From assembly GCF_050320075.1 (NCBI RefSeq), contig NZ_CP190018.1: a stretch of 64,000 nucleotides of DNA; one strand, given 5' to 3'. Of this stretch, positions 33,001-39,000 are shown piece by piece; within the stretch, counting starts at the first letter, position 1, and the number at the start of each line of letters is the position of its first letter. A program made the position numbers. This DNA is from Escherichia coli. Its GTDB lineage: Bacteria; Pseudomonadota; Gammaproteobacteria; Enterobacterales; Enterobacteriaceae.

Positions 33001-36000
33001 GCCCTTGAATCGTCTAACCAGGAGGCCGGTGGCTCATCCGTTGAAATGGCCGAAGCTGAGTATATGGTCCGTGCCAGCGGTTATCTTCAGAGCATTGATG
33101 ATTTTAATAACATCGTCCTGAAAACAGGCGAGAACGGCGTGCCGGTTTATCTGCGGGATGTTGCCCGCGTGCAGACCGGGCCTGAAATGCGGCGTGGTAT
33201 TGCCGAGCTGAACGGCCAGGGCGAAGTCGCTGGCGGCGTGGTGATCCTGCGGTCGGGTAAAAATGCACGCGACGTTATCACGGCAGTGAGGGATAAACTT
33301 GAGACGCTGAAGGCCAGCCTGCCGGAAGGCGTTGAAATCGTGACCACCTACGATCGCAGCCAGCTCATCGACCGGGCGATTGATAACCTCAGTTCCAAAC
33401 TTCTGGAAGAGTTTATCGTGGTGGCCATCGTCTGTGCCCTGTTCCTGTGGCACGTACGTTCTGCCCTGGTGGCGATTATCTCTCTGCCGCTTGGTCTGTG
33501 TATCGCCTTTATCGTCATGCACTTCCAGGGACTGAACGCCAATATCATGTCGCTGGGAGGGATAGCGATTGCCGTCGGTGCGATGGTGGATGCCGCCATT
33601 GTGATGATTGAGAATGCGCATAAGCGGCTTGAGGAGTGGGATCATCAGCATCCGGGTGAGCAGATTGACAACGCCACCCGCTGGAAGGTGATTACCGATG
33701 CCTCCGTTGAAGTGGGACCCGCACTGTTTATCAGCCTGCTGATCATCACCCTGTCCTTTATTCCTATCTTTACCCTGGAAGGTCAGGAAGGACGTCTGTT
33801 TGGCCCGCTGGCATTCACGAAAACGTACTCCATGGCGGGCGCGGCCGCGCTGGCCATCATCGTCATTCCGATTCTGATGGGATTCTGGATCCGGGGGAAA
33901 ATTCCTGCAGAGACCAGTAACCCCCTGAACCGGGTACTGATCAAAGCGTATCATCCATTGCTGTTGCGGGTTCTCCACTGGCCAAAAACAACCCTGCTGG
34001 TTGCGGCCTTGTCCATTTTCACCGTTATCTGGCCGCTGAGCCAGGTGGGCGGTGAGTTTCTGCCGAAGATTAACGAGGGCGACCTGTTGTATATGCCGTC
34101 GACCCTGCCGGGTGTCTCTCCGGCTGAAGCTGCAGCGCTCCTGCAGACGACGGACAAGTTAATCAAAAGCGTTCCTGAAGTGGCCTCTGTATTTGGCAAG
34201 ACCGGTAAAGCAGAGACCGCCACGGATTCCGCACCGCTCGAAATGGTTGAAACCACGATCCAGCTCAAACCTGAGGATCAGTGGCGTCCAGGCATGACGA
34301 TTGACAAGATTATTGAAGAACTCGACAGGACCGTCCGTTTACCGGGGCTGGCAAACCTCTGGGTGCCGCCAATCCGTAACCGTATTGATATGCTCTCAAC
34401 CGGGATCAAAAGCCCGATAGGTATCAAGGTGTCCGGAACGGTTCTGTCCGATATCGATGCAACGGCGCAGAGTATCGAAGCGGTCGCCAAAACCGTACCC
34501 GGCGTAGTGTCTGCTCTCGCAGAGCGACTGGAAGGCGGGCGCTACATTGATGTGGATATCAACCGGGAAAAAGCCTCCCGCTACGGAATGACGGTGGGCG
34601 ATGTGCAGCTGTTCATCTCATCAGCCATCGGCGGCGCGACGGTAGGGGAAACGGTTGAAGGCGTGGCCCGGTACCCGATTAATATCCGCTATCCGCAGGA
34701 TTACCGGAACAGCCCGCAGGCCCTGAAACAGATGCCGATCCTGACCCCGATGAAGCAGCAGATCACGCTGGGCGATGTTGCGGATATTAAGGTCGTTTCC
34801 GGGCCGACTATGCTGAAAACGGAAAATGCCCGTCCAGCCAGCTGGATTTACATTGACGCGCGCGGCAGGGATATGGTGTCGGTGGTTAATGACATTAAAA
34901 CGGCGATCAGTCAGAAAGTGAAACTGAGACCGGGTACCAGCGTGTCATTCTCCGGACAGTTTGAACTGCTTGAGCATGCCAACAAGAAACTGAAGCTGAT
35001 GGTGCCGATGACGGTGATGATCATCTTCATCCTGTTGTATCTGGCATTCCGCCGGGTTGATGAAGCCCTGCTGATCCTGATGAGCCTGCCGTTCGCCCTG
35101 GTTGGCGGGATATGGTTCCTGTACTGGCAGGGCTTCCATATGTCTGTCGCAACCGGAACGGGGTTTATCGCTCTGGCCGGGGTGGCAGCAGAGTTTGGCG
35201 TGGTCATGCTGATGTATCTGCGTCATGCCATTGAAGCGCACCCGGAATTGTCCCGTAAAGAGACGTTCACACCGGAAGGCCTTGATGAAGCCCTCTATCA
35301 TGGTGCCGTACTGCGTGTCCGGCCGAAAGCCATGACCGTGGCGGTGATCATTGCGGGTCTGCTGCCAATACTCTGGGGAACCGGTGCAGGTTCAGAAGTC
35401 ATGAGCCGTATCGCGGCACCCATGATTGGTGGGATGATCACGGCTCCGCTGCTGTCCCTGTTCATTATTCCTGCCGCCTACAAATTAATCTGGCTGCGCA
35501 GACATAAAAAAAGCGTGTCCTGAACCTGAAAGGGCACCCCCTGTGGGTGTCCTTCTTTACTGATTCACCCTGACGTCAGGGTTTAAATCGATAATATACA
35601 GAGGTGAGTATGAAAAAAGTGGTTCTGATGGCGCTGGCTCTCGGCCTTTCACTGCCCGCGATGGCGAGTGAAAAAGTGATTGATATGTACAAATCTGACA
35701 ACTGTGGCTGTTGTTCCCTGTGGGGCAAGGCGATGGAAAAAGACGGGTTTGAAGTACGAACTCACGTCATGAATGATCAGGCGCTGTCAGCCCTGAAAGA
35801 AAAGCATGCTATTCCTGCAGGGCTGCGAAGTTGTCATACCGCGGTTGCCGGTAATTTGATCATTGAAGGCCATGTGCCTGCGACAACGATACATAAGGCA
35901 ATGCAGTCTGGTTCAGGTATATACGGTTTCGCCACCCCCGGTATGCCAGCAGGAAGTCCTGGAATGGAGATGGGAGCCCGAAAAGAGGCTTACGATGTTA

Positions 36001-39000
36001 TCGCATTCTCACCGGATGGAAGTAAAAAAGTCTTCCAGCGAATCGAATAGTCAGCGGAACGGCTGATAACGGGACGCCGGTAGCAGGCACTCCTGTGCCG
36101 GCGATATTCGTGGTAATCGCATCCATGACATACCCTGAAGACAGAAGATGCTTCGGTATGCATAAGGAGAGTTACTGTGAAAAATGACAATGCAGTGCAA
36201 CACAACAACCAGACTGCTTCTGAGCAGACATTATCCCCGGACGAGGGCCACGTATTGCATAAGGTGAGAGATCCCGTGTGCGGGATGGCCATCCTGCCCG
36301 ACAGGGCGCACAGCAGCATTCGATACCAGGACCATCAACTTTATTTCTGCTCCGCCAGCTGTGAGAGTAAATTTAAAGCCCATCCCGATCGTTATCTTAC
36401 CGAAGATGCCAGTGAACATTCCCATCACCATCACCACGATCATCACGAAGTCAGCCCTGATCAGATAAAACAGCCTCACCACCAGGCGGAAAAAGAGAAT
36501 TCTGAAGGTGTGTGGACATGTCCGATGCACCCGGAGATACGCCGCAGTGGTCCCGGAAGCTGTCCTGTCTGTGGAATGGCACTGGAGCCGCTCGTAGCTA
36601 CGGCATCCACGGGGCCGAGTGATGAACTTCACGACATGACAAGACGCTTCTGGCTGGGGTTGTTGCTGGCGTTTCCGGTTCTGGTACTCGAAATGGGATC
36701 TCATCTGTTTCCCGAGTTGAGGAATACAGTACCGCCACAGTACAACACATGGCTGCAGCTGCTTCTGGCCTCCCCTGTCGTGTTGTGGTGTGGCTGGCCA
36801 TTCTTCGCCCGGGCCGGAATGTCGTTACGTAACCGCTCCCTGAATATGTTTACCCTTGTTGCAATGGGGACCGGCGTAGCCTGGGTTTACAGCGTCATTG
36901 CAACCGTCTTCCCCTCCTGGTTTCCTGCATCGTTCAGAAACATGGATGGCCTGGTGGCCGTTTATTTTGAAGCCGCAGCAGTTATTACGGTGCTTGTTCT
37001 GCTGGGACAGGTTCTTGAGCTGCGGGCACGGGAACAAACCTCAGGCGCCATTACTGCGCTTCTGAACCTTGCCCCCAAAACCGCCAGACGGCTGGATCAT
37101 GACGGTCATGAAACGGATATTAATGCGGAAGATGTCCTGCCTGGCGATAAGCTCCGCATCAGACCTGGAGAGAGTATTCCGGTCGACGGTATCGTGATCG
37201 AAGGCAAAACAACCGTTGATGAATCGATGGTGACCGGGGAATCTATGCCGGTTACCAAAACGGAGGGTGACCCTGTCATCGGGGGGACCATTAATCAGAC
37301 AGGGAGTCTCATCATCCGTGCAGAGAAAGTCGGTGATGAAACAATGCTCTCACGAATTGTTCAGATGGTCGCTGATGCACAGCGTTCGCGTGCCCCCATC
37401 CAGAGAATGGCTGACAGCGTTTCAGGCTGGTTTGTTCCTCTGGTGATACTTATCGCGGTTGTTGCTTTCGTGATCTGGTCTGTCTGGGGGCCCGAGCCCA
37501 GGATGGCGCACGGTCTCATTGCGGCTGTGTCGGTCCTGATTATTGCCTGTCCCTGCGCGCTGGGGCTGGCCACGCCGATGTCGATAATGGTGGGGGTGGG
37601 CAAAGGAGCCCAGGCCGGGGTGTTAATCAGGAATGCCGAAGCCCTTGAGCGTCTTGAAAAAGTGGACACGCTGGTTGTCGACAAAACAGGCACGCTCACG
37701 GAAGGTTCGCCTACGGTGACAGGGATTATCAGTCTCAATCCGGGTGGGGAAACATCTCTTTTGCGTGTAACAGCCGCAGTGGAAAAAGGCTCGCAGCATC
37801 CGCTGGGTATGGCAGTAGTTAAAGCAGCACAGGAAAAGGGGATCGCAATACCCGCAGTCACTCATTTCGATGCACCGTCGGGTAAAGGTGTCTCAGGCGA
37901 TGTCGAAGGTCAACGGGTTGTTATTGGTAATGAACTGGCTATGCAGGAAAACAGTATAGTTATTGATAATCAAAAGGCCGTTGCGGATACGTTGCGGATG
38001 GAAGGCGCTACCGTTATCTATGTGGCCACAGACGGGGACCTTGCAGGCCTGATAGCTATCTCGGATCCCGTGAAAACAACCACGCCGGATGCGCTTAAAG
38101 CTTTGCGTCAGGCGGGGATCCGCATCGTTATGCTCACCGGGGATAACCAGCTTACTGCTGAAGCAGTCGCACGGAAACTGGGAATAGATGAGGTTGAAGC
38201 CGGAATTCTGCCGGATGGCAAAAAAGCAGTGATAACCCGACTGAAAGAGTCTGGCCATGTGGTTGCGATGGCCGGAGACGGTGTGAATGATGCCCCGGCG
38301 CTGGCAGCGGCTGACGTGGGTATAGCCATGGGAACGGGTACAGATGTGGCAATTGAAAGTGCCGGAGTCACCCTTCTCAAAGGCGACTTGATGATACTGA
38401 ACAGGGCCCGTCATCTGTCAGAGATCACCATGAAAAATATCCGTCAGAATCTGTTTTTTGCATTTATCTACAACGCACTTGGCGTGCCTGTGGCTGCAGG
38501 TCTGCTTTATCCTGTGTATGGAATACTGCTGTCGCCAGTTATTGCGGCGGCGGCCATGGCTCTTTCCTCCGTCAGCGTCATTGTGAATGCGTTGCGTCTG
38601 AAAAGTGTCAGGCTCGGGAAATAACACTGAGTGAAGGGTCAGTTACGAACAGAAGGAGTCCAGTATGAAAAGTACCACCTATGCGCTTATTGCTGTCGCC
38701 GCGATCGCGGCATTTGCCCTCCTGCGCGAACACTGGTCACATGTGGCAGGTTACTGGCCATATCTGTTATTGCTGGTCTGCCCGCTAATGCATCTTTTCC
38801 ACGGCCACGGAGGGCATGGAGATCATCAACATCACGGAAGTGAAAACGATAAAAAAAATTAATCCGGCAGACGGGGCCGCGTCGCGGTCCCGTTATCAGT
38901 CCAGGTATCGTTCGTAGTCTCTGGCATGCGCAAAGGCATGCTGTTCGAGTTTGTTATCAGCGGGTGCCGCTGCCCGGAACGCCAGAGAGTTAACAGGGTT

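Follow-up and report, generated by a model that had tools for sequence, protein, structure and literature searches.

In the present analysis, we examined a stretch of 64,000 nucleotides from Escherichia coli (contig NZ_CP190018.1; this whole stretch is referred to below as the window, and coordinates are those of the window), and in particular the region 35604-38862, in which three co-directional open reading frames (ORFs), all on the (+) strand, encode SilG, the P-type ATPase SilP and a 65-residue protein of the DUF2933 family. This region forms the last part of the silCFBAGP operon, which belongs to the sil/pco copper and silver island (CHASRI), and both of the small genes flanking silP are already known and annotated in RefSeq. 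The new element is a computational finding, namely that DUF2933 tracks P1B ATPases of the HMBD type very tightly. The locus itself is thus ordinary and offers one modest lead, a testable hypothesis about DUF2933. An earlier reading made from the sequence alone (the sequence-only reading) had described two uncharacterised accessory proteins flanking silP and had taken both for metal-handling partners of the ATPase. ORF calls confirmed the two genes, with the upstream one starting more likely at 35610 than at 35604, and the description of their products (a secreted CxCC protein upstream and a two-helix peptide with a His/Gly-rich tail downstream) was correct. The word uncharacterised does not apply to the upstream protein, which is SilG, a member of the DUF411/CopG family that has a homologue of solved structure (6WIS) and was named in 2015 (PMC4356207). 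The downstream protein had been said to have a poorly defined role, and the literature searched indeed assigns no function to the DUF2933 family. As a whole, the earlier interpretation is partly supported: the half concerning SilG is outdated, and the half concerning DUF2933 as a partner of the pump is a fair open question.

To describe the genomic surroundings of DUF2933, one genome per GTDB species was scanned for CPLMHLFH, which yielded 144 confirmed relatives, and 80 loci were kept; because the scan used this motif, the genome sample is clade-biased. Genes were considered adjacent when they lay on the same strand with a gap of at most 120 nt. A P1B ATPase gene was found directly beside the DUF2933 gene in 68 of the 80 loci and within 8 kb of it in 76; the four exceptions lay on short contigs or at contig ends. 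With only a few P1B ATPase genes among the thousands of genes in a genome, chance would place one of them next to DUF2933 in well under 1% of cases. A conserved association with such pumps had been named by the sequence-only reading as a point to check, and for DUF2933 the outcome was strongly positive. The DUF2933 gene preceded the ATPase gene in 39 loci, mostly from Burkholderiales, and followed it, as it does in sil, in 29 loci, mostly from Rhizobiales and Sphingomonadales. Many of the pairs showed 4-nt ATGA overlaps, which are typical of translational coupling. Since the adjacency was kept despite the changed gene order, it points to a functional tie rather than to inherited synteny.

The type of pump beside DUF2933 was specific. 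An HMBD motif was present in 57 of the 61 full-length adjacent ATPases, while the ATPases of the HMA type that occurred in the 80 loci were in every case (7/7) the non-adjacent copy. Seven loci (L004, L043, L062, L066, L067, L069 and L075) contained two P1B ATPases, and in each of them DUF2933 lay beside the HMBD copy, with the HMA copy 2-5 kb away. A Pfam check carried out on nine of the ATPases confirmed these domain types. SilP (36177..38624, +; 815 aa; SilP in RefSeq) is a P1B-type Cu(I)/Ag(I) ATPase with the Pfam domains E1-E2_ATPase, Hydrolase, HMBD and YHS; its N-terminus consists of YHS, a His-rich stretch and HMBD, and the Pfam scan found no HMA domain. Its sequence carries the CPC and DKTGT (DKTGTLT) motifs of P1B-1 Cu(I)/Ag(I) ATPases and passes the NCBIfam models for the P1B and copper ATPase subfamilies, TIGR01525 (628.6 bits against a cut-off of 346.25) and TIGR01511 (598.6 bits against 397). 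It scored under the cut-off of the E. coli CopA equivalog model (677 vs 1316 bits), as expected for a distinct SilP-type pump.

The same arrangement was observed far from the sil operon. A Rep3-type metagenomic contig carries, in this order, genes for a resistance-nodulation-division (RND) protein, DUF411, an ATPase with YHS and HMBD, DUF2933 (with a 4-nt overlap), a multicopper oxidase and an M23 peptidase, and its DUF2933 protein is approximately 51% identical to the sil copy. The trio of DUF411, ATPase and DUF2933 is kept across classes at 40-55% identity and in differing gene orders. A tblastn search of a plasmid collection with the 65-residue peptide returned almost only sil copies. Overall, the DUF2933 gene tracks one structural P1B subclass across Alpha-, Beta- and Gammaproteobacteria, and its 65-residue product is a well-defined target.

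The DUF2933 gene itself occupies 38665..38862 (+) and has a Shine-Dalgarno sequence, AAGGAG (38653..38658, +), 6 nt ahead of its ATG. Its product matches Pfam PF11666 with an E-value of 6.2e-24 (84.3 bits against a cut-off of 21) over 51 of the 52 profile positions. Relatives at E<=1e-3 fell into 1,538 clusters at 50% identity, and the family profile matched at least 7,917 clusters at 90% identity. The family has evolved under purifying selection, with a median dN/dS of 0.23 over 2,048 pairs; in comparisons with the sil copy dS was saturated, and dN was only about 0.2-0.35. Sequence and fold searches of the hairpin against the PDB gave no matches, and five diverse members compared with Pfam at E<=10 hit only DUF2933, with no MerE, MerF, FixS or KdpF-like signal. 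P0142 (379 aa), in which an ATPase C-terminus seemed to be naturally fused to DUF2933, was rejected as a frameshift-ridden metagenome call.

The protein consists of two hydrophobic helices followed by the tail HGHGGHGDHQHHG. In an AlphaFold2 (AF2) model, the helices span residues 2-28 and 31-46, with a mean pLDDT of 82.6. The motif E22-H23-W24-S25-H26 (38728..38742, +) lies at the turn-proximal end of helix 1, on the predicted periplasmic side, and in 326 members of the family the three key positions of EHWxH were conserved at 96% (E), 97% (H) and 97% (H). Helix 2 contains the motif C39-P40-L41-M42-H43 (38779..38793, +), in which the column frequencies were 99% for P, 90% for M and 99% for H in sequences selected on the Cys motif. 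In a diverse alignment of 40 sequences (A2), C39, P40, H43 and H26 were invariant. C39, M42/H43 and H46 share one face of helix 2 (i, i+3/4, i+7) that runs into the His/Gly-rich tail (38800..38838, +); the tails of the family contain on average 5 His and 6 Gly, and that of the sil copy includes HGHGGHG. The core can be written as F-LL-(R/T)-E-H-(W/R)-x-H ... G-x-x-P-Y-L-L-L-L-A-C-P-L-M-H-L-F-H-G-H-G-G-H-G, and over EH(W/R)xH ... PYLLLLACPLMHLFHGHGGHG the protein in the window has every invariant or near-invariant residue of the alignments A1, A2 and A3. The ten residues ahead of helix 1 contain on average 2.0 K/R against 0.5 D/E, and the turn between the helices is neutral; by the positive-inside rule, this bias predicts an N-in/C-in topology with a cytoplasmic tail. 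Insertion into the inner membrane is likewise what we infer from hydrophobicity and the charge bias. In a natural variant of the sil protein from a Salmonella 4,[5],12:i:- SGI-4 variant (P0014, included in A1), the HGHGGHG tail is three residues shorter and the product, running past the usual stop, reaches a length of 80 aa, and therefore the exact length of the tail is not fixed.

The best explanation of these observations, which we hold with moderate confidence, is that the distal end of sil combines a CopG-like SilG with a DUF2933 protein that acts as a membrane-anchored, metal-binding accessory of an HMBD-type pump. SilP belongs to a P1B subclass in which YHS and HMBD modules stand in place of the ferredoxin-like HMA domain. 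The DUF2933 protein would sit in the inner membrane as a helical hairpin, its two ends facing the cytoplasm and a Glu-His-x-x-His cluster lying at the periplasmic turn, and its stripe of Cys39, Met42/His43 and His46 on helix 2 would continue into the cytoplasmic HGHGGHG tail. With the His-rich tail and the Cys/Met/His helix face, it could collect Cu(I)/Ag(I) at the cytoplasmic face of the membrane and then either present the metal to the entry site of the pump or tune the activity of the pump. A more specific version, in which DUF2933 is a dedicated partner of HMBD/YHS P1B ATPases, either a membrane metallochaperone or a regulatory subunit, that replaces the CopZ/HMA system, is put forward tentatively, as a possibility on the less probable side. 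If it is true, DUF2933 would be the first small protein to be described as a subunit of a heavy-metal P-type ATPase, and it would be present on thousands of clinical sil/pco plasmids. In the role of a pump subunit or membrane chaperone, it would account for metal acquisition by ATPases that have no HMA domain, and models of silver and copper resistance would gain a component; should DUF2933 have no phenotype, the distal sil genes could be treated as accessory.

A counterpart in a known system is found on pMOL30 of Cupriavidus metallidurans, where the DUF2933 gene (RMET_RS34430 / Rmet_6382) is copO and the order of the trio is copO, copF, copG. Like the gene in sil, copO lies directly against an ATPase of the HMBD/YHS type (CopF), with the DUF411 gene copG on the other side of the pump. 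The order is reversed relative to sil, and the copO stop overlaps the copF start. CopO (L002, 17132-17404) keeps LLCPLMHF but lacks the EHWxH motif and the HGHGGHG tail of the sil copy. Transcription start sites have been mapped for copO, and it is reported among the genes with both sense and antisense transcripts increased under multi-metal challenge. C. metallidurans CopL was considered as the homologue and rejected, as it is a different, Cys-rich cytosolic protein. In a wider comparison, and by analogy only, DUF2933 may be likened to KdpF, sarcolipin/phospholamban, FXYD, MgtR/MgtS and CcoS/FixS (beside the P1B ATPase CcoI/FixI), all very small hydrophobic proteins whose genes adjoin that of the P-type ATPase on or with which they act; its conserved adjacency and frequent translational coupling fit this pattern. 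However, no sequence or profile similarity to those peptides was found, and unlike them DUF2933 is built of two helices and carries conserved metal ligands. The mercury transporters MerE and MerF are proteins of about 70-80 aa with two transmembrane helices and Cys-Pro metal motifs within a helix, encoded in metal-resistance operons. DUF2933 resembles them in size and two-helix layout, but there is no detectable homology, the ligands are a single conserved Cys with Met/His instead of Cys pairs, and the gene lies beside an exporter and not a reductase.

Several results weigh against DUF2933 as an accessory of the pump. The 80 loci, ranked by similarity to the sil copy, represent one large clade and not the whole family. 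On short metagenome contigs, distant members have CsoR, DUF302 or CusF neighbours and no ATPase is visible, look-ups of distant representatives having landed mostly on contigs shorter than 3 kb. A gene for an ICMT-like methyltransferase overlaps the end of the DUF2933 gene, in the place of the pump, in at least 11 loci, and a survey of Alteromonas reported many clusters of merR, copA, cupredoxin, DUF2933 and ICMT; this second conserved neighbour tempers the idea of a pump subunit. For AF2, 20 paired fusions of SilP(105-815), a GS linker and DUF2933 were built; the pump part folded (pTM 0.65), but no confident docking was obtained, and the pLDDT of the peptide was 52-69 compared with 78-96 alone, a model that speaks neither for nor against an interface. 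We found no experiment addressing DUF2933 in the literature searched. In addition, deletion of silG, silP or both in E. coli J53(pMG101) caused no drop in the minimum inhibitory concentration (MIC) of silver, the AgNO3 MIC staying above 256 mg/L whether or not the chromosomal cus operon was present (PMC4356207), and the silG-silP end of the operon was therefore dispensable for silver under those conditions.

The same deletions are the argument for regarding the two small genes at the end of the operon as dispensable passengers that contribute nothing to the resistance phenotype of the island, a view that we consider very unlikely. The MIC was at the ceiling of the assay, which covered silver under aerobic conditions only (PMC4356207), and copG adds to copper resistance anaerobically in another species, according to PMC7558416; moreover, the trio is conserved across classes, and the dN/dS of DUF2933 is low. 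That the 65-codon ORF is a chance ORF that is not translated, as its shortness and the lack of proteomic evidence in the literature searched might suggest, is excluded by the Pfam match, the thousands of homologues, the purifying selection, the consensus Shine-Dalgarno sequence and the conserved synteny.

DUF2933 might instead be an autonomous small membrane protein that translocates or buffers metal, an oligomeric conduit in the manner of MerE/MerF that is co-regulated with metal-resistance genes at large without being a partner of the pump. The hairpin carries a ladder of soft and borderline ligands from the EHxxH turn through C39, M42/H43 and H46 to the His tail, which would suit such a conduit, as would the layout shared with MerE/MerF and the distant members seen beside CsoR, DUF302 or CusF. 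We nevertheless regard it as unlikely, given the absence of a MerE, MerF or FixS signal in Pfam and of any match in the PDB, and given that in 68 of 80 loci the gene is placed directly against a P1B ATPase, specifically of the HMBD type, with overlaps indicative of translational coupling. Alternatively, the primary partner of DUF2933 could be the ICMT-like methyltransferase, with DUF2933 as its substrate, activator or scaffold, and the copy beside silP would then be a leftover of a larger, ancestral ATPase/DUF2933/ICMT module. The ORFs of the ICMT family (PF04140) overlap the DUF2933 stop by 4 nt in L020, L021, L022, L032, L056, L068, L080, L082 (~8190-8900) and others, and in loci in which DUF2933 is not against the pump this overlap is found, usually with no more than one or two genes between it and the pump. 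Upstream of DUF2933, DUF302 is commonly present, and the metagenome contig L083 (1374-2233) reads CsoR-like, DUF302, DUF2933, ICMT; in addition, many marine gammaproteobacteria have cupredoxin, DUF2933 and ICMT after copA. However, no ICMT gene adjoins DUF2933 in sil, pMOL30, the Rep3-type contig or about 55 of the 80 loci, the sil copy retains every conserved residue, and purifying selection acts on the DUF2933 family as a whole, so that a primary tie to the methyltransferase appears quite unlikely. A role of DUF2933 as an accessory of the HMBD-type pump remains the reading that we prefer; the analysis shows the identities of the genes, their family memberships, the conserved motifs, the purifying selection and the linkage in genomes, whereas the topology, the binding of metal by DUF2933 and any contact with SilP are inferred.

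The gene upstream of the pump is silG, formerly ORF105 (35610..36050, +), which encodes a 146-aa protein of the DUF411/CopG family. A longer ORF reading from a GTG at 35604 to 36050 (+) gives 148 aa and includes ...KSDNCGCCSLWG..., but this GTG falls inside the silG Shine-Dalgarno sequence. The ATG at 35610 is the likelier start because a GAGGTG Shine-Dalgarno sequence lies just upstream, because RefSeq uses it and because Randall et al. (2015), who renamed ORF105 silG and found its N-terminus SignalP-positive, corrected the length to 146 aa (PMC4356207). The N-terminus reads as a typical Sec-type signal peptide (MKKVVLMALALGLSLPAMA|SE; 35610..35666, +) with predicted cleavage before SEK. SilG matches Pfam DUF411 (PF04214) with an E-value of 1.9e-19 (69.5 bits against a cut-off of 27), and it matches the solved structure of Pseudomonas aeruginosa CopG (PDB 6WIS, chain A) with an E-value of 8.8e-30 over 119 residues, query residues 25-143 aligning with chain residues 4-119, which comprises the whole thioredoxin-like domain. 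In this alignment, the CGCC (CxCC) motif of SilG (35703..35714, +) pairs with CGCC, which provides cluster-binding cysteines in CopG, and PGMPAGSPGMEMG pairs with PGMPVGSPGMEMG.

SilG resembles CopG (6WIS/6WJE and C. metallidurans CopG) in keeping the CGCC, SCHT and GMPxGSPGME segments (the last within PGMPxGSPGMEMG) and a signal peptide, and silG resembles copG in belonging to a cluster for Cu/Ag efflux, where it is flanked by genes for an RND pump and a P1B ATPase. According to PMC7558416, CopG is a periplasmic thioredoxin-like protein in which the CxCC motif and adjacent methionines bind a tetranuclear copper cluster (Hausrath 2020). Proposed roles for CopG are the interconversion of Cu(I) and Cu(II) or the delivery of copper to further cuproproteins, and genetic linkage to copA and cusCBA has been described (PMC7558416, PMC8872213). 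Unlike what is described for CopG, deletion of silG left the silver MIC unchanged, and the literature searched contained no biochemical study of SilG itself. By homology, SilG would be exported to the periplasm, where its thioredoxin fold, with CxCC and the methionines of GMPxGSPGME, would carry a multinuclear cluster of Cu(I)/Ag(I); most likely, it would buffer or redox-convert the metal moved through the periplasm by SilP and SilCBA and would not be a physical subunit of the pump. Because SilG is predicted to be periplasmic, we regard it more as a protein that handles exported metal downstream of the pump than as a demonstrated physical partner of SilP. Only 13 of the 80 loci had a DUF411 gene at most 8 kb away from the DUF2933 gene and its ATPase gene. 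The earlier expectation of a metal phenotype upon deletion is partly contradicted for SilG by the published silver MIC, although that assay was at its ceiling. SilG calls for no new explanation beyond CopG-like behaviour.

A scan from silA to the DUF2933 stop detected no sigma-70-like promoter and no convincing terminator. Together with a GC-rich hairpin after the stop, this fits a single transcription unit. The hairpin (38870..38894; 11 bp; RNA fold -20.8 kcal/mol, z=-2.7) lies between the convergent genes for DUF2933 and the M23 peptidase; it has no T-run and for this reason was not called an intrinsic terminator, and it is probably a bidirectional transcript end or a stabiliser. The silG-silP intergenic region (36051..36176, +) is also structured (RNA fold -51.8 kcal/mol, z=-3.9; none of 200 shuffles folded as well), and in its last (3') stem the silP Shine-Dalgarno sequence and the GTG start of this gene are paired. 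This fold may be an element of translational or processing control; a search against Rfam matched no family.

The sil/pco island is among the most widespread metal-resistance elements of clinical and livestock Enterobacteriaceae. The region 35604-38862 is 100% identical to an annotated E. coli chromosome record that reads silA, DUF411, silP, DUF2933, and the surrounding 27.6 kb (23400-51000) is 99.996% identical to the island in the chromosome of E. coli YZLc1-3. The annotation of YZLc1-3 reads copM, silE, silS, silR, silC, cusF(silF), silB, silA, DUF411, silP and DUF2933, and then an M23 peptidase, a SilE-like 'copper resistance protein', pcoABCDRSE and an IS66 element. At a coverage of at least 80%, a 3.6-kb core was found in 2,717 plasmids of PLSDB, including R478 at 99.9% identity, and it was matched in 838 of 5,426 complete E. 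coli genomes.

Directly upstream of silG lies silA (32377..35523, +), whose ORF encodes an RND permease that is named SilA in the identical E. coli record. The convergent neighbour of the DUF2933 gene is an M23 peptidase gene (38896..39633, -; Pfam Peptidase_M23 and Csd3_N2), which is pcoG in the CHASRI nomenclature; DUF2933 and pcoG have been named as neighbours (PMC12582456). The pcoG product is a MepM/ShyA-like M23 peptidase of 245 aa, truncated in that the N-terminal portion of MepM is missing. On a distant contig (L090), the DUF2933 module is likewise followed by an M23 peptidase, so that this pairing is conserved too. A SilE-like protein of 149 aa (39922-40371, -), which scored 80 bits against the SilE model and thus under its cut-off of 200 bits, is placed together with pcoG between sil and pcoA. 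At the left edge of the island (23400-26100), a truncated Tn7-like TnsA gene broken by IS1 was observed beside yhiN, and a CopM-family gene precedes silE. The right edge (47600-50300) is formed by ISCro1, an element of the IS66 family.

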